Below are positions 4,831 through 14,290 of a DNA stretch of 64,000 bases, in pieces. The translations under genes and the position numbers were made by a program. The notes under the pieces are model-generated. The model was not told where the DNA came from. It saw only the letters and a program-made list of their open reading frames with translations, and ran no database searches. Positions within the stretch are counted from its first letter, which is position 1. The number at the start of each line of letters is the position of its first letter. This stretch comes from a virus, in IMG/VR virus record IMGVR_UViG_3300010334_000030, positions 1-64,000 of that record, one strand, 5' to 3'.

Positions 4831-6036
4831 CTATTTCTTTTTGATCTTTTTGGTCTTTCTGTTATTCTTAACCTTCTCTTCTTCCGGATCCTTCGCTATA
4901 AATTTAGCAAGCTTCCAGGCTAGTCCAAACCAAAACTTAGCATTTTCGTAAGATCTTTTAATTCCTTTCCATTTCTCCTTTGTCCTTTCTATGATCCCTT
5001 TATCTAATGGTGTTTTTTGTTCCTGAATAGTGGAGAGATAAGAATCTAGGTCTTTTTTAATCTGATCTGCCCTTTTAACGATTTCTTTCTTGCCTATTTC
5101 ATATTTACTTTTGATCTCACTTAATCCTTTAATTCCTATTTTTTCTATTATAGAACTCTTTATTTCTCCAGTGTTTTTAGGGTCTGGTTTTTTTGCCCAT
5201 TTGAATATCCTATAAACACCATATAAAGGGAAAAGTGCAGACACACCGATTAAAAGCTTTAATTCCAATCCAGATTTAAGGTGATTCCAAAAAAGTGATG
5301 TTATGCACTCTTTTTTTAATTTAATAGATCCTGAATCCTTAACTGAGGTGGCAGTTAACTTTACGAAATTTTTAACGACGTCTATATCATTTTTAACCTT
5401 GGGTGTTTTCCATATGCTTATGCCTTTTGTTGTGATCCATTTCCCAATCTGTGCTACCGCATAAATTGTATTAGGCTCTACTGAAATAGTCGAAGAATTA
5501 GAAGACCCCGAGAATCCACTAATAATAGTTGCTGCTTGAAGCATCATTTTCGCTACCTCTTTCTGAACTACCCAAGCTCCGGATAACGTGTAAACCAAAG
5601 CCTTTCCGTCGGCAGCAGCTGCATGCTCTAAAAAGCTAAATCCACCATTAAGAAGTCCTTCTTTTTTTAGTGCTTCTATTTTTGTTTTTACCCCAGCCTT
5701 AGGAATTAGTACAACATATGGAAAATTTGCGCTGCCTTTTGGTTTTAAGGTAATAACCATTCCGGCTTGAAAGAGATCGTAGAAATTTGGGTTCTCGTAT
5801 ATTTTAGGTTTCGGTAAACCCTGTCCCTTTATAACATCCTCTTTTATCTTACCTGCTCCCAATAGATCAAACACATCGAAAACAGATTTTGGCCCTCCTG
5901 GGATTTTATAAGTGTTGGGATCAACTAATAGATCTTTAGGTTTAGCTACAATTGCCATCTTGCTTCCCTCCAATAGGAATTCTTCAGATTCATAAAGGGG
6001 ATCAAACTCAGAAAAGGATAATAGACGCGTTTCCAT
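4831..6036 (-). CDS. hypothetical protein with CTS-like N-terminus, candidate virion internal protein
   Basis: METRLLSFSEFDPLYES; GATATATA about 20 nt upstream; one hydrophobic segment (LLIGVSALFPLYGVYRIF). Confidence 0.7.
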   Translation of the reverse strand: METRLLSFSEFDPLYESEEFLLEGSKMAIVAKPKDLLVDPNTYKIPGGPKSVFDVFDLLGAGKIKEDVIKGQGLPKPKIYENPNFYDLFQAGMVITLKPKGSANFPYVVLIPKAGVKTKIEALKKEGLLNGGFSFLEHAAAADGKALVYTLSGAWVVQKEVAKMMLQAATIISGFSGSSNSSTISVEPNTIYAVAQIGKWITTKGISIWKTPKVKNDIDVVKNFVKLTATSVKDSGSIKLKKECITSLFWNHLKSGLELKLLIGVSALFPLYGVYRIFKWAKKPDPKNTGEIKSSIIEKIGIKGLSEIKSKYEIGKKEIVKRADQIKKDLDSYLSTIQEQKTPLDKGIIERTKEKWKGIKRSYENAKFWFGLAWKLAKFIAKDPEEEKVKNNRKTKKIKKK

Positions 6037-6049
6037 TTAGTTTTTTAAT

Positions 6050-6424
6050 TTATTCTATATATCTTCTCTCCCTATTTGCGGTGTCTATTAGGCGGTTTAA
6101 ACAAGCTATAGTGGCATCATCATAATTCTTGAATGCACCATGGCTAAAATGCTCTATACGAAGGTCTGGGTACCTTATAACGTAGTCGTAAGTGTCACCG
6201 GCATAGAGCTTTACATATGAGATCATACCACAATTCTCTCTAAACCATCTAAAGGCTTGTTGGTAAATCGGTGCATTAATATTCGGAATATCTTTTGAGC
6301 CATAAACAAAATTATCACCTTTAAAGTAAAACTGACCTAGCACATAAGCAGCCATACAAGGTTCATCAAAGCCGAGTTCTTTAAGTTGTAAGGCTTGTTC
6401 GTAAGAAATGAATTCTTTTTCCAT
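6050..6424 (-). CDS. phage hypothetical protein, paralogue of 6424..6840
   Basis: Shares KEFIxYEQALxLKELGF, APxxxQAFRWFRE and ACLxxLI with its neighbour. Confidence 0.8.
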   Translation of the reverse strand: MEKEFISYEQALQLKELGFDEPCMAAYVLGQFYFKGDNFVYGSKDIPNINAPIYQQAFRWFRENCGMISYVKLYAGDTYDYVIRYPDLRIEHFSHGAFKNYDDATIACLNRLIDTANRERRYIE

Positions 6425-6840
6425 TATTGATTTTTTAATATTTCAATAAGTTTCTTTAGACAAGCAAGCTCTGCTTCTTCATAGGTATAGTATAAATCAG
6501 AGTTGTAAACTATATTCTCCCAGCCTTCAAAAAACTGAGTTGACTCATATCTAGATATAGAGTAACAGAACTTTGGCTCCATCGTTTGGTCAGCATTTAT
6601 CGACGAAAATAACAAATAGTGTTCTCTAAACCACCTAAATGCTTGTGAGAATGTTGGTGCAATACATTCTCCTATTTTATCCATGTCTTGTGGGGTATAA
6701 AAAAAATCTTTGTCTTCATAACCAATAATGACATCTGATAACAATTCCACATTTATGTTATACCAGGCAAAACATTGTTCACCAAACCCAAGTTCTTTAA
6801 GAGCTAATGCTTGTTCGTAAGGGATAAATTCTTTTTGCAT
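6424..6840 (-). CDS. phage hypothetical protein, paralogue of 6050..6424
   Basis: Same motifs as 6050..6424; tandem duplicate. Confidence 0.8.
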   Translation of the reverse strand: MQKEFIPYEQALALKELGFGEQCFAWYNINVELLSDVIIGYEDKDFFYTPQDMDKIGECIAPTFSQAFRWFREHYLLFSSINADQTMEPKFCYSISRYESTQFFEGWENIVYNSDLYYTYEEAELACLKKLIEILKNQ

Positions 6841-6845
6841 GCTAA

Positions 6846-7682
6846 TTAGATTTTTCCGAATGATATTTCTTCGTCATTGATAATAAGATATTCCCCACTA
6901 GTGCCTAAGCAGTCTATAAACCAATATCTTCCACCAGTAGCCCCTCCCTTCTTATCAACTCTTTCAACCTGTGTGTGACCAACGATCTGGATAACATCTT
7001 TCCTCAGTGTGTCTCTGTTAGCCTTCATCAAAGATCTAGGCCTAATCCAAATAGGGGATTGCCGTATATCATCTCCGTAAGGATCGGTAATTCTAGTTTG
7101 GTCACAGTAAGCACCAAACGTAAAAGATTTTGGTTTATATCTATGAAGTTCGTTTAGGTCCGTAGCTAAAGTTTCGGTCTTCCATACATCCTTTCCAAAA
7201 GCACTATCCATAAAGTCACTGCTCACCCCTGCGTGTGTGAATAGGAACTGTCCCATCTGGTATGCCATTTGGAGGTGTTTTTTATTTTCACCTATTATGT
7301 AACTTATAGATGGAGCTAATAAGTGTTGGTATCCACTTGTTCCTGTATCGCCAACTTCAGGAAAATAGTGGTGATCGTGATTCCCTATTAAAAGAATGAC
7401 CTCACATATCCCGCTCTCTTTGAATTTAAGTATATCCTGAAAGTTATTAAGCTGATCATTTCCTGATATGTCAAACGAATCAAAATAATCTCCTATGAAT
7501 ATCATTCTATCGGGCTTCTCTAATTCATAGATCAATTTCCAAACTGATCTACCGTGAACATCTCCTATTACTACAGTTTTCATTTTTCTTTTATTTTCTA
7601 GCCAATTACTTAAAGATTCATCGGTTTCTTCAGATAAAGCTTTATCAATTTTTTCTTCTAATTTTTTTAAATCTATTGCCAC
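6846..7682 (-). CDS. calcineurin-like metallophosphoesterase (core starts at about 7583)
   Basis: GDVHG, GDYFD, GNHD, THAG and GHT motifs. Confidence 0.92.
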   Translation of the reverse strand: MAIDLKKLEEKIDKALSEETDESLSNWLENKRKMKTVVIGDVHGRSVWKLIYELEKPDRMIFIGDYFDSFDISGNDQLNNFQDILKFKESGICEVILLIGNHDHHYFPEVGDTGTSGYQHLLAPSISYIIGENKKHLQMAYQMGQFLFTHAGVSSDFMDSAFGKDVWKTETLATDLNELHRYKPKSFTFGAYCDQTRITDPYGDDIRQSPIWIRPRSLMKANRDTLRKDVIQIVGHTQVERVDKKGGATGGRYWFIDCLGTSGEYLIINDEEISFGKI

Positions 7683-7684
7683 AG

Positions 7685-7900
7685 TTAATCTTTTTTAAAT
7701 GTTTCTTTATAGAATTGTTCTCCACAATTTTCTTCATCAACCATTGGAGATTGATTGATATATCCATTATACCAAGTATTAATTATCTCTTGCTTGTGCA
7801 TTTCTTTAGCTTGTTCAACTAATTCATCCATTATAAAAACATCCCCTTTAATTTCAAAGTTTTTATAAAGTTGAGTAACAAACCATTGTATTGATGTCAT
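7685..7900 (-). CDS. small cassette protein (MTSIQWF...AKEMHKQEII family)
   Basis: Paralogous to 8515..8814; ends in KKD-stop. Confidence 0.7.
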   Translation of the reverse strand: MTSIQWFVTQLYKNFEIKGDVFIMDELVEQAKEMHKQEIINTWYNGYINQSPMVDEENCGEQFYKETFKKD

Positions 7901-7907
7901 AACTTTT

Positions 7908-8099
7908 TTATTTTTGATCAAACCAATACCAACCCAATAATATTCTCATAAATTGTCTATGGAACCAATTTGGTTTATATGTTAAATTGAATTGAATATA
8001 TCCAGTGGTTGATTTACCTATTCTATATCCTCCCACATATTCTGGAGGTGATACTAATGTATTTAGTTTGATTGTTTCTCCTTGTAAATTGTAATTCAT
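7908..8099 (-). CDS. small hypothetical protein
   Basis: ATG lies inside the junction repeat; KPNWFHRQFMRILLGW. Confidence 0.7.
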   Translation of the reverse strand: MNYNLQGETIKLNTLVSPPEYVGGYRIGKSTTGYIQFNLTYKPNWFHRQFMRILLGWYWFDQK

Positions 8100-8101
8100 A
8101 A

Positions 8102-8512
8102 TTAATCTTTTTTAGGTTGTTTAAGTGATTGGATGATTTCTGTTTTTTCAGAAACAAGTAAATAACCATATTTATCTGCCATATTTATTGCATCCCTAAC
8201 TTGTTCCTCTGTATATAGAGTTTCTTGTTGGGGAAGTTCTACCATTTTGCTGATGTCAGAAATATGGCCAGATTTAATTAGTTTGGCATAAATTCCCATC
8301 AACACATTATCATCATCAGATAAAGTATTTTTATTAGAAACTATATTAACTATCTCAAACTCTACATCTTGTGTAAATTTAGAAGTGAAGCAAGTATCCA
8401 TTAGTTCTATAAAGTCAGGGTGTAAGGGAAGTGTTTCCCAATCATTCTTATTAATAGAATAGTTATAGTTTACCACCCATCCCTTTTCTGTTTTAGTTAA
8501 TATTCCTTTCAT
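8102..8512 (-). CDS. mosaic cassette protein (MKGxLxKTxxGW family)
   Basis: N-terminus shared with 9433..9990 and 13742..14290; LYTEEQVR and PKKD shared with 9433..9990. Confidence 0.8.
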   Translation of the reverse strand: MKGILTKTEKGWVVNYNYSINKNDWETLPLHPDFIELMDTCFTSKFTQDVEFEIVNIVSNKNTLSDDDNVLMGIYAKLIKSGHISDISKMVELPQQETLYTEEQVRDAINMADKYGYLLVSEKTEIIQSLKQPKKD

Positions 8513-8514
8513 AA

Positions 8515-8814
8515 TTAATCTTTTTTAGTTTTTTGATAAAATCCACTACTGTTTTCCCAATCTTCATTTGTTGTATTTTGTTTAAACAAATCTCTCATTT
8601 TAAGTGTAACTTTCGACCAATCTTTACCATTAGCCAATGTTTCATAATACAATTCTACATCTGAATCACCCAATCCATCAAACCCATCTTCTGCACCTGC
8701 ACTAAAAGCATTTACTATTTCTTGCTTGTGTAATTTATTAGCATATATAATCATTGCTTCTGTAGGATGATGAACCTTTTTAAGTTCTTCTAATAGCCAA
8801 GTTACTGATGTCAT
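8515..8814 (-). CDS. small cassette protein
   Basis: MTSVTWL...HKQEIVNA, paralogue of 7685..7900; ends in KKD. Confidence 0.75.
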   Translation of the reverse strand: MTSVTWLLEELKKVHHPTEAMIIYANKLHKQEIVNAFSAGAEDGFDGLGDSDVELYYETLANGKDWSKVTLKMRDLFKQNTTNEDWENSSGFYQKTKKD

Positions 8815-8818
8815 AAGT

Positions 8819-8980
8819 TTAGTCTTTTAATTCTTCTTTAGTTAATTTATACATTATATAAGCTATTTGTGTAGCTAATAACATTTTAAGCATTTCTTCT
8901 ATTGTAGCACCTTTCCATACATTAAATGATATAAGAATAGATGCTAACCATACAATTAGGAATAGTCCAAATGTTTTCAT
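8819..8980 (-). CDS. 53-aa membrane protein (not in the ORF track)
   Basis: My translation: MKTFGLFLIVWLASILISFNVWKGATIEEMLKMLLATQIAYIMYKLTKEELKD; ATG within the junction repeat. Confidence 0.65.
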   Translation of the reverse strand: MKTFGLFLIVWLASILISFNVWKGATIEEMLKMLLATQIAYIMYKLTKEELKD

Positions 8981-8993
8981 AATTAATCTTTTT

Positions 8994-9320
8994 TTAGCCC
9001 TTATTTTTATTTTTTTTAAATATATTTAATAAATCTATCGTTCTCTCAGCTCCATCATACTTTGATTTAGCATGTAACATATCACCATTTACATTTTTGT
9101 TTTTATCAGGATAAGTAGCTACAAATTCTGCAAACTCACACATTTCTTTTATATGAATTTCTTTTGCACCTTTCTCTATTTCTTCATCTGATATTTCTTG
9201 TTTGGGATATGTAACAAGTTTTTCAAGTTCAGAAATATATCTTAACACACTAATAGGTGTAGTCATATAATCTTCTTCACAATTATTCTTCCAATAGTTT
9301 ATGTCTTTTTTTTGTGTCAT
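8994..9320 (-). CDS. mosaic hypothetical protein
   Basis: Tightly packed ORF; its stop lies immediately before a junction repeat. Confidence 0.7.
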   Translation of the reverse strand: MTQKKDINYWKNNCEEDYMTTPISVLRYISELEKLVTYPKQEISDEEIEKGAKEIHIKEMCEFAEFVATYPDKNKNVNGDMLHAKSKYDGAERTIDLLNIFKKNKNKG

Positions 9321-9430
9321 AGTTTATCTTTTATTTTTTCTAATGTTTTATTAATTTCTATTAAGTTATAAGATATACTCATAAGACCTATAAATATTAT
9401 TATTCCAATCATTCCTAAAATAACTATCAT
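9317..9430 (-). CDS. 37-aa single-TM protein (not in the ORF track)
   Basis: My translation: MIVILGMIGIIIFIGLMSISYNLIEINKTLEKIKDKL; ATG in the junction repeat; ATGA overlap with the next gene. Confidence 0.6.
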   Translation of the reverse strand: MIVILGMIGIIIFIGLMSISYNLIEINKTLEKIKDKL

Positions 9431-9432
9431 AA

Positions 9433-9990
9433 TTAATCTTTTTTAGGTTCTGAAATTAATTCTACAATTTCATCATCTGTGTATGCGTGTAGCTTCAATC
9501 CATTTCCCATAACATTTTCCGTATTAGTTACGCGAGATTTTCTGATTGCCAATCTAACTTGCTCTTCTGTGTATAGAGATTTTTTTTCTTCTTCTACTAA
9601 CTTTTCTATTAAATCCCAACATTTAATTCTTTCATCAAAAGGTAATGACCATATTGCACCATCTATTAAGTCCGTTGTTGTTGTAGGATAATCACTATCT
9701 TCTTTTGGAGCATCTTTAGAATCTTCCCCCATTATCTCTGTGAGTATCTGTTTTGTATTGCTTCTAACGAGTTTAGCAACCTCTATTGGTTGCTGCATTT
9801 CATCTGTCCAATAGTATTTTATCTCAAACTCCACTTCACCATCCTCGGCATCTTCATCTAAGAGATAAACCTTTACGTAGTCCGGGTGTATTGGATACGT
9901 TCCACCTACACATGGCATTCCTGTAAAATCATAAAATGGGTCTTCAACTACCACCCATCCTGTTTCTGTTTTATGCAATTTTCCCTTCAT
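9433..9990 (-). CDS. mosaic cassette protein (MKGKLHKT family)
   Basis: Start moved to MKGKLHK by alignment to its paralogues; ends in PKKD. Confidence 0.8.
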   Translation of the reverse strand: MKGKLHKTETGWVVVEDPFYDFTGMPCVGGTYPIHPDYVKVYLLDEDAEDGEVEFEIKYYWTDEMQQPIEVAKLVRSNTKQILTEIMGEDSKDAPKEDSDYPTTTTDLIDGAIWSLPFDERIKCWDLIEKLVEEEKKSLYTEEQVRLAIRKSRVTNTENVMGNGLKLHAYTDDEIVELISEPKKD

Positions 9991-10228
9991 CTTCTTGATT
10001 TTTTGATTTGTTGTAAAGATCTTCATGAGAAGATGTTATAATTATATTCCTTACTTCAGACCAGAACTCGTAACCTCTATCTGCACCCATATAACTTAGT
10101 ACATTATCGCAAACGTACTTGCATATAGATTTAGCTGTTAATACATTCTTCTCGTGCGATAGCTCATAGCACCATCTAGTATATGAGTCTCTGTATAATT
10201 CTTGTGCTTTTTCTTTTGCTGTTATCAT
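9971..10228 (-). CDS. hypothetical protein (TAKEKAQEL...FWSEV)
   Basis: ATGA overlap with the upstream kinase. Confidence 0.7.
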   Translation of the reverse strand: MITAKEKAQELYRDSYTRWCYELSHEKNVLTAKSICKYVCDNVLSYMGADRGYEFWSEVRNIIITSSHEDLYNKSKNQEDEGKIA

Positions 10229-10608
10229 AACTTTATTTGAAATCTATTTTTCATTTGTTCTATCTTATCGTCTGGACATCCGTGAACATTTACTCCTTCG
10301 TGTCTATTCTCTACTATGATGGAATGTACCCTGAAATTATACTTCCCCCCAAGTTTAATATAGTTTTCCATCTCCCACTCTTGGGTGAATGTATTAGAGA
10401 CAACAATCTTGTCCTCGCCTCTTCTCATCGCAGTTTCGGTGCTGTGTAGACACCATTCGTGAGCGTCTTTTAGCCCAGCAGGATCAAAGTGATAAGTTCC
10501 ATTCTCCATGAAGTACATATCTGCTTCAAGATGTGTGCCTTCTATTGCTTTGGCTAGTGTTGATTTACCTGCACCCGGTAATCCTCTTAATAGTATTAGT
10601 GTTTTCAT
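10225..10608 (-). CDS. P-loop polynucleotide-kinase-like protein (AAA_33)
   Basis: LLRGLPGAGKST Walker A, EADMYF, VSNTFTQEWE, NVHGCP. Confidence 0.85.
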   Translation of the reverse strand: MKTLILLRGLPGAGKSTLAKAIEGTHLEADMYFMENGTYHFDPAGLKDAHEWCLHSTETAMRRGEDKIVVSNTFTQEWEMENYIKLGGKYNFRVHSIIVENRHEGVNVHGCPDDKIEQMKNRFQIKL

Positions 10609-10609
10609 T

Positions 10610-11290
10610 TTATTGTTCTCCTTTTAATCTTTCTTCATGATGATCGAATGGTAAAACGTTTGCTTGAACTGGACGCCCAGATAGCATTCTAACCACCTCA
10701 CCTAAAGGATAAGGAGTTAAATTGTTACCATCACATCCAACATCCATTGATCTACCCCCCATCAGTTTCTTATTGGCAGGTAAATGTACGTGACCAAATA
10801 AATGAAATCTGCCTTTGCTCATATCATGCCAGCTAGTAAGAGGATAGTGCATTAATACAAACTCGAATTTCGATTTAGCAGCCATCTTATTTTCAATCTC
10901 AACAGATAATATGGTGTATTGACTTACGCTTGAAAATAAGCTCTGAACATCTCCTCTGTTATTTTCGATATGGTGATCGTGATTTCCGAGAATTAAATGT
11001 ATGTTCTTACAGATAATTCTATCTCTAAATTCTTTGATTGAATCAAATCCACCAAATGACCAATCACCCAAATGAATCAGTATATCATCTTGGCCTACTG
11101 TCTTGTTGATATTATCAACAATAACAGAATTCATATGCTCTAGATTCTGAAAGTCCCTAGTCTGATCGATTGGAATAGAGCCATCCTGACGTCTCCAGTT
11201 AGTTACTCCTCTACATATATTCTTATGATTATAATGAGTATCAGAGGTGAAGAATAACTTTTGTCCAGGCTCCAACTTTATATTTAACAT
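10610..11290 (-). CDS. calcineurin-like phosphoesterase
   Basis: SDTHYNH, LGDWS, GNHD, HYP, GHVH and DVGCD motifs. Confidence 0.92.
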   Translation of the reverse strand: MLNIKLEPGQKLFFTSDTHYNHKNICRGVTNWRRQDGSIPIDQTRDFQNLEHMNSVIVDNINKTVGQDDILIHLGDWSFGGFDSIKEFRDRIICKNIHLILGNHDHHIENNRGDVQSLFSSVSQYTILSVEIENKMAAKSKFEFVLMHYPLTSWHDMSKGRFHLFGHVHLPANKKLMGGRSMDVGCDGNNLTPYPLGEVVRMLSGRPVQANVLPFDHHEERLKGEQ

Positions 11291-11311
11291 AAAAACTTCT
11301 TTTTAATCTTT

Positions 11312-11344
11312 GCAAATGTAGGGAGATTTCTCGGGGTAAAAAAA
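11312..11344 (-). promoter_or_regulatory. CGAGA-N8-TACATTTG promoter, copy 2
   Basis: Perfect Bacteroidota -7 element TAnnTTTG with an upstream CCGAGA box. Confidence 0.75.
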
Positions 11345-12493
11345 TTAGTGGGAATCTCCAATATCATGTTTCTCTCCGTAGATTAGATAATCTGGATTGA
11401 TCACCTTGGCAATCTTATTACGTACACCGTGTACATGCTTCACTACAACACCCTCGTGTGGTACTTTTGTCCCATTTATAAAGTTATTAAATACAAACTT
11501 GTCTTGAATCTCTTGTGACCACTTACCAACATAAAGTATATCCGCATGAGATAGTTCCAAATCATTTTCTATAACCATCTTTGCAAGAAGAGTTGATAAA
11601 TATTCTCCGTCCCACATAACATCAAATCCACAAAATTTAATATCATCTAACCCGTAATCATATCCTTTCTGAATTCCTTTACCGTAAATTTCGCCATATA
11701 AAACAACTCCCGAACCTACTTCATCCGACATTTTCTCCTTAACAAACTTCCATAATTTCTCTTTGATCTTGTATTTGTCAGCAATCTCATACCATACATT
11801 CGTATCGTAGAATCCTTGTGAGTCTGATCCCTTCTCAACATTATGCGAACCAACAACAAACTCATATTCAGACCATTTCCAATCAGGCTTTATCTTTCTT
11901 GCAAGTGCTAGCTTTATCTTGTCTAATAGAGACAATTTTGTTTTTCTTACTATACCATATCTTGCGTTTGTACCATGTATCTTTCTAGTAATTTGAACCA
12001 GATCTTCCTCAGTGAACATTCCAGTAACATTCTTCATATTAGGAAACTTGTAATACACAAGGAAATTTGGATTATCTTGATATCTTATTTTTCTACCTGA
12101 ACCAAGGGTTATTTGTTTAACCGGGGGTTCATACTTGAAGATGTTTAACTCCTTCATCATATCTCTACCCTCGTAATATTCGTTAGGGGTTCCTTTATAA
12201 GAAATAAACTTTAAAGGTATTATCAAACACTCACTATACACACCTCTTAACTTTACCGTTTTAACCCTCTGTCCCCTGCGGAGATAGTTGGTTACGTTCA
12301 TATCATCGGATAAATCTTGGGGTATAACCGCATCGGTGGTTGCAACAACAACCAAATCCCCAACATTATATTCCCCCTTCTGTATGATGCAATTCCATCC
12401 ACCGATGCGGGCTTGTTCTATTTTATCTGCACCCGGAATGTTTTCAATTACATCTATTTTTGCTACATAGCAGCAGCTGTTTACATTTTGCAT
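11345..12493 (-). CDS. RNA ligase, DRB0094/Rnl5-like
   Basis: N-terminal OB domain (IPGADKIE, VKLRGVYS); motifs KIHGTN, LYGEIYG, GFDV, EGVVVK and KVINPDY; start set at MQNVN. Confidence 0.9.
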   Translation of the reverse strand: MQNVNSCCYVAKIDVIENIPGADKIEQARIGGWNCIIQKGEYNVGDLVVVATTDAVIPQDLSDDMNVTNYLRRGQRVKTVKLRGVYSECLIIPLKFISYKGTPNEYYEGRDMMKELNIFKYEPPVKQITLGSGRKIRYQDNPNFLVYYKFPNMKNVTGMFTEEDLVQITRKIHGTNARYGIVRKTKLSLLDKIKLALARKIKPDWKWSEYEFVVGSHNVEKGSDSQGFYDTNVWYEIADKYKIKEKLWKFVKEKMSDEVGSGVVLYGEIYGKGIQKGYDYGLDDIKFCGFDVMWDGEYLSTLLAKMVIENDLELSHADILYVGKWSQEIQDKFVFNNFINGTKVPHEGVVVKHVHGVRNKIAKVINPDYLIYGEKHDIGDSH

Positions 12494-12503
12494 TTTTAAT
12501 TTT

Positions 12504-13115
12504 TTAAGGCATGTATAAAATAGTAGGATTATCTTTATGGATGTCCACTTTTGCTTTGTTGTCTGCAAGAAACTGGGTCATTCTTTGAATGTTAAACGGT
12601 CTCGTAATTAAATGATAACCATTCTTGGTTGGAATCATTTCCATCATAGGTTCTCTGCCGGTCTCTTCCTGAAGATCCTTTATCCTTTGATGCATAACTC
12701 CTAAAAATGCTTTACGTCCTTCGAAGTCTTTCCAGTCAATGTCAACAATCCACTTCTTATCATCGTCACCATGAAACTCACCTGAGACCGAGCTAAAGGC
12801 AAATCTAACCGCCTTGTAATCTTCAGACATAATAATATCAGTTACTCGCTTTAGCATTTGAAATGCTGTCTTCTTTGCACTTCTTTTGTTTATTCTGAAG
12901 TAAGCTCTTGCATTATTAGTATCACACGTTTGGATAATAGAATCCATTATGGCATCAAAGTGTGCTAGGTTATAAATAAAAAGGTCATCAATAACAACCA
13001 TATCTTTAGCAAGCCCAGGATTATCCTTTCTCCTCTTCAGGATTTCAAGAAAATAATAGGTGTCCGAATCTGAGAAATCCAGGAGTGGTCTAATTAGATC
13101 GAAGTTGTTTATCAT
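12504..13115 (-). CDS. AEP (prim-pol)-like protein
   Basis: WIVDID (DxD) and PTKNGYHLI (GxH) match AEP motifs I and II; adjacent to the RNA ligase. Confidence 0.6.
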   Translation of the reverse strand: MINNFDLIRPLLDFSDSDTYYFLEILKRRKDNPGLAKDMVVIDDLFIYNLAHFDAIMDSIIQTCDTNNARAYFRINKRSAKKTAFQMLKRVTDIIMSEDYKAVRFAFSSVSGEFHGDDDKKWIVDIDWKDFEGRKAFLGVMHQRIKDLQEETGREPMMEMIPTKNGYHLITRPFNIQRMTQFLADNKAKVDIHKDNPTILYMP

Positions 13116-13741: not shown

Positions 13742-14290
13742 CTATTTTTTAAGGTACTCTTGACACCAATAACATGCTCTGATAAAGCTCGTTTCTGCAA
13801 CCCCTTTATTCATGAAACTAGAAGAATATTCCGAGGCAGCCTTTTTTATATATTCGTCAGGAATCTGTGCATCATAATAATTTAGTCCAGAAACGAATCC
13901 TTTCATCCAGAAGTTCTTATCGCTCTCATCACATCCATCGCATCCTTCCCATAAGCTTTCCGCCAGATCGTATTTCTCTTTTAATTCCCTCTTCTCAATA
14001 ATTTCATTGCAAATTTTTAAAGTTCCATCTATAAGGGGATAACCAGTTTCATCTATTTGAATGTCAGTGTTGGCAACTCTAATGGGCTCTTCCAATCCAG
14101 TTTCCCAAAAATCTTCTATCTCAAATTCTACTTCTTCACCATCCATATCTCTACCGAGTTCATAGTTTGGTTCTAAATAAGGATGTAACGGAATCTCTTT
14201 TGAAACGGTTTGTGGAAATGGGAATACCCTCAGGTAATCCTCATATTGAACTGTCCAGCCGTTTTTAGTTTTATGTAATTTACCTTTCAT
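13742..14290 (-). CDS. MKGKLHKT-family protein
   Basis: Paralogue of 9433..9990 and 8102..8512 (PLHP...DGEEVEFEI). Confidence 0.8.
   Translation of the reverse strand: MKGKLHKTKNGWTVQYEDYLRVFPFPQTVSKEIPLHPYLEPNYELGRDMDGEEVEFEIEDFWETGLEEPIRVANTDIQIDETGYPLIDGTLKICNEIIEKRELKEKYDLAESLWEGCDGCDESDKNFWMKGFVSGLNYYDAQIPDEYIKKAASEYSSSFMNKGVAETSFIRACYWCQEYLKK

Follow-up and report, generated by a model that had tools for sequence, protein, structure and literature searches.

A recurrent stop/start joint between small genes of uncultured phages: candidate roles in translational coupling and cassette exchange

The subject of this report is an array of small genes in a 64,000-nucleotide (nt) stretch of virus DNA (positions 1 to 64,000 of IMG/VR virus record IMGVR_UViG_3300010334_000030; hereafter the window), together with a 17-nt repeat, which we call the joint, that stands at several of its gene boundaries. 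At three of its four exact copies the repeat encodes the last residues (KKD) and stop codon of one gene, a TT spacer and the ATG of the next. We present evidence that the joint is probably a translational-coupling signal carried by a mobile family of modular small genes, and that it plausibly takes part in the exchange of whole genes between phages. The record to which the window belongs (141,054 base pairs, bp) comes from a large phage of myovirus type, whose genes include those for ribonucleotide reductase, topoisomerase II and tail fibres; it is ~51% complete, and all record-wide negative results given below cover that half.

A small-gene array with an identical sequence at its boundaries

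Nine open reading frames (ORFs) on the same strand are flanked by a P-loop kinase gene (10225-10608) and by a calcineurin-like phosphoesterase gene (6846-7682, minus strand), which is conserved and borders the array on its downstream side. Stops and following starts are only a few nt apart, with gaps of 2, -4, 13, 4, 2, 2, 7 and 2 nt, and GC content is 29.8% in 8001-10000 as against ~34-36% in the adjacent 2-kilobase (kb) bins. Read from its upstream end on the minus strand, the array includes A1 (9433-10026; 197 amino acids, aa, as listed), with an N-terminal 'KTEKGWVV'-type ('KTETGWVV' in A1) and a C-terminal 'LYTEEQVR..PKKD' module; tm37 (9317-9430), a hydrophobic, membrane-like ORF of 37 aa; g108 (8994-9320); tm53 (8819-8980), a membrane-like ORF of 53 aa; B1 (8515-8814; 99 aa), a small protein of what we term the M1 type ('MTSVTWL..HKQEI'); A2 (8102-8512; 136 aa), a paralogue of A1 with the same two modules; g63 (7908-8099; 63 aa); and B2 (7685-7900; 71 aa), a second M1-type protein that ends in ..YKETFKKD.

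Exact copies of the 17-mer AAAAAAGATTAATTATG stand on the minus strand at 8097-8113, 8510-8526, 8978-8994 and 9428-9444, and the entire record contains no others. By a hand estimate from base composition, ~2.5e-4 exact matches would be expected in the window; allowing up to 3 mismatches, the window holds 8 matches against 2.0 expected, and 0/100 shuffles reach 8. A chance origin was rejected on the strength of these shuffles and of the record-wide count of exact copies. The copy at 9428 comprises the end of A1 (..ISEPKKD), its stop, TT and the ATG of tm37; the copy at 8510 links the end of B1 (..QKTKKD) in the same manner to the ATG of A2, and the copy at 8097 links the end of A2 (..SLKQPKKD) to the ATG of g63. 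The copies at 8097 and 9428 are identical over 23 nt (AACCT, the 17-mer and A), and the 38-nt tail CAATCACTTAAACAACCT plus joint at 8097 is 100% identical to a metagenomic locus, L059. The copy at 8978 is an 'orphan' that serves as the leader of tm53: its KKD codons are untranslated because g108 (108 aa) stops at a TAA formed by a T and the first two A's of the 7-A run.

Three further boundaries carry diverged forms. Between tm37 and g108, where the genes share an ATGA overlap, lies ATAAAAGATAAACTATG (9318-9334, minus strand; 3 mismatches), and the homologous g108 start in locus L025 has the exact 17-mer. Between tm53 and B1 lies AAAAGACTAAACTTATG (8812-8830, minus strand), which differs by a 2-nt insertion and one substitution; the homologous site in locus L013 reads CAAAAGATTAATTATG and is nearly canonical. 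At 7680-7696 (minus strand), AAAAAAGATTAACTGTG has 2 mismatches and spans the end of B2 (..ETFKKD), its stop, CT and a GTG, which appears to be the start of the phosphoesterase (7680-7682).

A first-pass annotation of the window had described a repeat that bounds whole, tightly packed genes, with four exact copies, variants at 7680 and 8812, KKD-stop and the next ATG encoded by three of the copies, and a repeat retained past the upstream stop at 8978. All of this was borne out, and the expected-frequency check that it had proposed gave the ~2.5e-4 quoted above; the variant at 9318 was not on its list, and the 22 bp over which it matched the copies at 8097 and 9428 are in fact 23 nt. It had also allowed that recent whole-gene duplication might explain the repeat. 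We rejected this origin: the joined paralogues are only ~28-30% identical (28% for A1 and A2; ~30% for B1 and B2, which have 'MTS..W..HKQEI' in common), and recent whole-gene duplication therefore cannot explain identical joints.

Recurrence of the joint in metagenomic phage contigs

An exact-match scan of IMG/VR for the 17-mer yielded at least 120 stretches. The copy set that we analysed consists of 120 of these loci, which were picked through the 17-mer itself, and the window's record; all comparison contigs in this study are metagenomic. The set holds 134 exact copies, 79 of which have ORFs on both sides, among them several unrelated gene pairs, and a large subgroup of the joint-bearing loci belongs to the same modular small-gene family as the window array. 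With A2 as the query, scans of viral and of metagenome contigs revealed no close relative.

We also assembled a motif-independent set of 37 loci, collected by the M1 peptide pattern only. Here the exact 17-mer precedes 13/36 M1 gene starts and near variants precede two, while the leaders of the other starts are unrelated to it and sort into a few recurring classes; the distribution is thus bimodal, exact or unrelated, with almost no intermediates. Among the C-terminal tripeptides of these loci, KKD is the most frequent (20/590 ORFs). All 20 tails are encoded by AAAAAAGATTAA, with TTATG next in 17 of them; under the loci's own codon usage the exact 12-mer has a probability of 0.243 per tail and of 5e-13 for all 20. 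Around the phosphatase and kinase genes of 143 relatives, by comparison, one KKD tail was found among 4088 ORFs, and those neighbourhoods contain zero copies of the joint motif.

Orphan copies, in which the upstream ORF stops early, are present not only at 8978 of the window but in L003, L280, L286 and L302; they retain up to 20-23 nt (CAACCTAAAAAAGATTAATTATG), and the early stop is often a TAA inside ACC-TAA after a 1-nt shift. Translated copies follow non-homologous protein ends (ETF, LKQP, QKT, ISEP, KH and EKT). Because the 20 KKD tails share their codons and orphan copies persist, the joint is conserved at the nucleotide level, as DNA or RNA, and not merely as a peptide; the first-pass annotation had proposed the same from the copy at 8978. 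The A-run is 6 nt long in 115 copies, 7 in 19, 8 in 3 and 9 in 2, variation that fits slippage-driven frameshifts tolerated by the joint, and the spacer differs in a few copies, altering the frame relation between the two genes. In one locus (L055:1872-2285) the 17-mer (1987-2003) lies within a 137-aa ORF and is read in a third frame (..EKRLIMENL..); the counterpart of the downstream part in L089 is a separate 94-aa ORF starting at the joint, and the L055 ORF therefore looks like a gene fusion via a 1-nt shift in the joint.

The homologues of A2 (163 found, all hypothetical) indicate that the KKD joint has alternatives. Among the 120 homologues listed, the tail is KKD in 33, PKQ in 26, PKK in 8 and QPK in 5; behind an invariant SLKQPK there is a small number of distinct joint forms. 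One of them, CCTAAACAATGA (CTTAAACAACCTAAACAATGA; ..SLKQPKQ-stop with an ATGA overlap), is a second standard joint and is interspersed with KKD joints within single arrays; sites of this second joint were noted at L059:1080-2300, in L003 (minus strand) and at L057:9280-9310. At L289:2080-4680 a further leader, TTTAAAACTTAAATAAAATG, occurs five times in one array beside the KKD joint; this array also contains a 50-aa ORF (MPTKQYTITILNG..) in duplicate.

Correspondence with a Bacteroidia initiation signal

The only match between the record and a cultured phage is a segment of the phosphoesterase that matches Flavobacterium phage vB_FspM_immuto, and Shine-Dalgarno (SD)-like motifs were found in 5/119 genes of the record. 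Because of this sole cultured match, and because the genes lack SD sequences, the host is presumably a member of the Bacteroidota. In Flavobacterium johnsoniae, initiation is favoured by A's at -14 to -11 (A-12 and A-13 being the most critical), at -3 and at -6, and is inhibited by structure (Baez et al. 2019, PMC6847099). In the joint, all six positions from -14 to -9 relative to the ATG are A, as is -3, which is the second A of the TAA; the frequency of A across the genes of the record is 0.55-0.62 at -14 to -11. RNA folding of 61-nt windows at six joints gave -0.7 to -7.2 kcal/mol (z of -1.4 to +1.2 against shuffles), with four of the six folding worse than their own shuffles and none significantly structured. 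The alternative joints CCTAAACAATGA and TTTAAAACTTAAATAAAATG retain A-12, A-13 and A-3.

In its A's at -14 to -11 and -3 and in its weak structure, the joint matches the SD-less initiation signal of Bacteroidia. The simplest reading would be a compact stop-plus-restart signal at which translation may indeed restart, KKD being its translation; the orphan copies and the reuse between unrelated gene pairs of other AT-rich phages would then be explained. The first-pass annotation contained neither this correspondence nor the conserved blocks described next.

Blocks conserved at synonymous sites inside the genes

Three modules recur in the gene family: M1, 'MTSIEWL..AKEMHKQEI..YYQETF'; M2, 'ETLYTEEQVREAI..IQSLKQPK', which includes the LYTEEQV block; and M3, 'EISDEEIEK..WYREQLKQ'. 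In the blocks LYTEEQV, ISDEEIEK, YYQETF, MTSIEWL, EMHKQEI, LKQPK and WYREQLK, codons for the same residue are identical at a rate of 0.83-0.97, compared with the 0.37-0.56 expected from codon bias, and non-preferred codons are preserved; motifs taken as controls from relatives' phosphatase and kinase genes gave 0.39-0.57 against 0.35-0.53 expected. Across 28 M1 genes, mean identity is 0.58 and no value exceeds 85%, with ~0.9-1.0 within the blocks and ~0.2-0.4 between them. The joint is one of several nucleotide-conserved blocks, the others of which lie inside genes and are also found at breakpoints. Given that the initiation signal is degenerate, that the copies are either exact or unrelated, and that the internal blocks are conserved at synonymous sites, identity by descent, maintained by exchange, fits the copies better than convergence does.

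Exchange of cassettes between phages

The tm53 cassette is common to the window and L013. Identity over 8819-8980 is 92% at the nt level from the left joint (the orphan copy at 8978) to the right joint (the diverged form at 8812), or 92-93% nt and 87% aa for tm53, and both flanks are unrelated; outside tm53, 11.8 kb of L013 and the record share only two block matches of 37-47 nt, even by tblastx. At least one cassette, tm53, has thus passed between phages that are otherwise unrelated, and each of its two breakpoints lies at a joint. The homology of g108 with L025, which covers its N-terminal half and amounts to 88% nt identity, begins at a joint and ends inside the gene at a QEISDEEIEK block. 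Across 34 instances of the joint, 8 left and 13 right protein clusters are connected in 20 combinations.

Among five related large records, the joint occurs in one only, whose four copies lie within 7 kb in another part of its genome. L131 and L126, the closest relatives when judged by phosphatase identity, have a different repeated leader at the equivalent place (..ATAAAAAATAAAAGTTATG; ..AATAAAAAATAAAAGTTATG), and their own leader precedes almost every small gene upstream of the phosphatase (L131:7400-10010; L126:5000-7480). Between these two, cassettes have been gained, lost or relocated, and homology ends at those leaders.

Searches for dedicated machinery were negative. Neither tyrosine (PF00589) nor serine (PF00239) recombinases were matched in the 141-kb record, although the controls were matched, and no GIY-YIG domain was found there. 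RNA folding of the six 61-nt windows revealed no attC-like inverted repeat or hairpin at the joints, and no terminator-like sites were found on the minus strand of 6000-13000. Sigma-70-like sites in the region number 18 against 34 in shuffles, a count from a scan that does not cover Bacteroidota promoters; one weak 9/12 match overlaps the joint at 9428 and none lies over the other copies.

Annotation of the array proteins and neighbouring genes

The eight small array proteins gave nothing significant against Pfam and PHROGs, the one weak match being of B2 to a PHROG (E = 0.005), and the ESM Atlas returned unnamed viral clusters and weak OB-like structural leads (TM ~0.4). The region with the joint and M1, as well as a protein combining M1 and M3, had no DNA or protein match in 50,697 GenBank phage records.

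Two gene starts call for comment. As listed, A1 overlaps g85 by 56 nt (window 9971-10026, minus strand); because of the comparison with the start of A2 (MKGILTKTEKGWVV), the true start of A1 is probably the ATG at 9990 (MKGKLHKTETGWVV), which would leave an overlap of ~20 nt with the end of g85. If the phosphoesterase starts at the GTG of the diverged joint, it has a 33-residue extension (7583-7682, minus strand) before the methionine of MKTVVIGDVHG; this extension is matched in L125, L165 and L179, and in most relatives the alignment begins only at about residue 30.

A 182-aa ORF outside the array (window 13742-14290, minus strand) has a third A-type N-terminal module, with 45% identity to residues 12-84 of A1. 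At window 6050-6840 (minus strand) lie the tandem paralogues g124 and g138, which are 35% identical overall and have a common N-terminal 'KEFIPYEQALxLKELGF' module; homologues are found in L003, L057, L059, L131 and other loci, and the one in L003 stands directly after an exact joint.

Discussion

We favour, with a probability of about 0.6, the explanation that the 17-mer is a standard SD-less translational-coupling joint that travels with a mobile family of small, modular phage genes and provides short homology for cassette swaps. In this scheme the joint would consist of one gene's three final codons with their TAA, followed by a 2-nt spacer and the ATG with which the next gene opens; on the mRNA it would set the A-run at -14 to -9 and the A at -3 as needed for SD-less Bacteroidia initiation, so that the KKD tail is simply the signal translated. 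It would belong to a large family of modular small genes arranged in promoterless same-strand arrays, its copies would be identical by descent and move with their cassettes, and joints and other conserved blocks would together supply short exact homology for general homologous recombination, by which whole cassettes could be swapped, inserted or deleted between paralogues and between co-infecting phages. Crossovers would accordingly be expected within the joint. We offer more tentatively, and think rather doubtful, the extension that the joint and the blocks (MTSIEWL, EMHKQEI, YYQETF, LYTEEQV, ISDEEIEK, WYREQLK and LKQPK) form a recombination 'grammar' of connectors under concerted evolution, which allow in-frame, translation-ready exchange of genes and modules among unrelated Bacteroidota phages via general homologous recombination and not via a site-specific enzyme.

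Several observations weigh against this explanation. While 12.6% of homology ends fall within 10 nt of a joint as against 1.0% for random positions, the majority of homology ends are not at joints, and in a gene-start control 10/83 start-proximal ends lie at joints compared with 7.6% of starts (p = 0.10). Because the joint excess loses significance against other gene starts, a special recombinogenic status is not supported. Pairs that match on the left and differ on the right weigh little, since 12/17 nt belong to the left gene and retention of the joint is there nearly trivial. Half of the loci were ascertained through the 17-mer itself, the family occurs in no cultured phage among the 50,697 GenBank records, the contigs compared are metagenomic throughout, and no RecA or UvsX domain was detected in the record. 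As regards translation, position -6 of the joint is T and not the favoured A, and a degenerate initiation signal does not by itself demand 17/17 identity. A crossover role for the joint is plausible, in our view, and there are clean examples to illustrate it, yet statistics do not set it apart from ordinary mosaicism at gene boundaries. The earlier proposal of recombination at the junction is thus upheld in part: exchange of tm53 from joint to joint and many-to-many joining of genes agree with it, and the breakpoints show no significant enrichment over other gene starts. The comparison with related contigs that it had called for gave 8 left and 13 right families linked in 20 combinations, and zero motif copies in the neighbourhoods of 143 relatives.

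One may postulate instead that the joint is an initiation signal without any recombination role, in which purifying selection acts on termination and reinitiation on the mRNA while reshuffling occurs anywhere and selection retains intact genes. The positions of the A's, the unstructured joint RNA, the exact copies at stop/start junctions of unrelated gene pairs and the lack of significant breakpoint enrichment over other gene starts are all consistent with this account. We nevertheless consider it somewhat unlikely: what initiation is known to require is degenerate, a wide variety of leaders serves the other genes of this phage, the distribution of copies is bimodal, coding blocks with no initiation role are equally conserved at synonymous sites, and the tm53 cassette stops at joints on both ends. 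Constraint on every base could also arise if the joint were an operator for a sequence-specific translational repressor, or another RNA- or DNA-binding regulator, of a small-gene regulon. T4 RegA, for instance, binds A/U-rich initiation regions containing UUAUG, and such a role would suit both the identity over a full 17-20 nt, orphan copies included, and the discrete lineage-specific leader classes of L131, L126 and L289. It leaves the blocks inside the genes unexplained, and a search for the RegA family (PF01818), albeit a weak one in which the controls were silent too, gave no match in the record, nor in five related ones, of which two are 99-100% complete; we regard this possibility as very unlikely.

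The remaining alternatives are more remote still. Conservation of a homologous C-terminal module, combined with preferred AAA, GAT and TAA codons and gene duplication, might produce similar gene ends, and indeed M2 is found in A1 and A2, M1 in B1 and B2, and the LKQPK tail is widespread among A2 homologues. This account is largely refuted by the synonymous-site and orphan-copy results, and we judge it highly improbable: codons are identical in 20/20 tails (P = 5e-13), orphan copies are untranslated, KKD follows non-homologous ends, the paralogues are only 28-30% identical, and the blocks retain non-preferred codons. We give almost no credence to an integron-like system in which the 17-mer is the site of a dedicated recombinase. 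The array does consist of promoterless same-strand ORFs with a repeated boundary, and one cassette is bounded by the repeat on both sides; against this, the record has no tyrosine or serine recombinase, the site has no inverted repeat or hairpin, and breakpoints fall also at other blocks inside genes. The absence of an integrase near the array, which the first-pass annotation had remarked on, was therefore upheld, and its integron analogy is not supported as a mechanism. Just as far-fetched, finally, is a slippage-prone fusion switch, in which a -1 shift or an extra A would cause KK-RLI-M to be read into the next gene and thereby create low-level or heritable module fusions. The ATG does lie in the -1 frame, A-run lengths vary, and the L055 ORF (..EKRLIMENL..) corresponds to a separate ORF in L089. 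That ORF is, however, the single fusion with a KRLIM linker, natural fusions being made through different linkers, for example VSKGS; a few copies have a variant spacer, which shifts the frame relation; and T AAA AAA is not known as a canonical slippery heptamer.

These results bear on an old question, namely whether special linker sequences are where phage mosaicism originates or whether it originates at random positions and is then sorted by selection. The present gene family lends itself to studying this, since otherwise unrelated genes in it contain dozens of short blocks with conserved synonymous sites, and one of these blocks serves at the same time as a stop/restart signal. If joints and blocks are true crossover points, they would explain the in-frame spread of accessory genes and modules among uncultured freshwater phages, and would amount to a natural design rule for SD-less polycistronic expression in Bacteroidota. 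If they are initiation signals only, the joint would be a very strict coupling motif with the KKD tail as a by-product, and would still help to annotate such phages.

Relation to known systems

The array resembles an integron array only superficially. The likeness lies in promoterless same-strand ORFs, a recurring boundary element and a cassette content that varies between relatives; integrons, however, have IntI, attC hairpins and attI/Pc, whereas here we find no integrase in the ~51%-complete record, no attC hairpin and no attI/Pc, and the boundary is a short direct repeat within coding sequence. With the SD-less initiation region of Bacteroidia, the joint has in common the A-run at -14 to -11, A-3, low structure and the lack of an SD sequence (PMC6847099), but that region is a degenerate preference, while the joint is a single 17-mer, reused without change, that overlaps a stop codon and yields a KKD tail on translation.

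In T4-type phages, PeSLs (promoter-early stem-loops) are intergenic promoter and terminator units, and experiments have demonstrated that they give mini-circles (Arbiol et al. 2010, PMC2839356; Comeau et al. 2014, PMC4122927). They are short repeated regulatory sequences on either side of small, non-essential ORFs, situated in the variable regions of large T4-like genomes; they stand at the boundaries of insertions, deletions and replacements between relatives and unite regulation and recombination homology in one element (PMC2839356, PMC4122927), and the joint may be comparable in these respects. The joint differs in its length of 17-23 nt, in lying mostly inside the upstream coding sequence without promoter, stem-loop or terminator, and in acting, if at all, on translation; it is also known from sequence alone. 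When boundaries are examined as they would be for PeSLs, those of tm53 and g108 are at joints, the array is absent from the neighbourhoods of relatives, and the comparison with gene starts gives p = 0.10. The joint thus resembles PeSL shuffling in outcome, yet it is neither a PeSL nor an integron.

A further parallel is with the linker sequences of modular phage evolution and with recombination at conserved motifs in T-even tail-fibre genes, reportedly described by Susskind and Botstein in 1978, by Clark and colleagues in 2001 and by Tetart and colleagues in 1998. Such linkers are short conserved sequences at the edges of dissimilar segments that act as crossover points between them, and the blocks inside the genes studied here are alike in this regard; what differs is that conservation here extends to synonymous sites across many uncultured phages, and that one of the blocks doubles as a stop/start joint.

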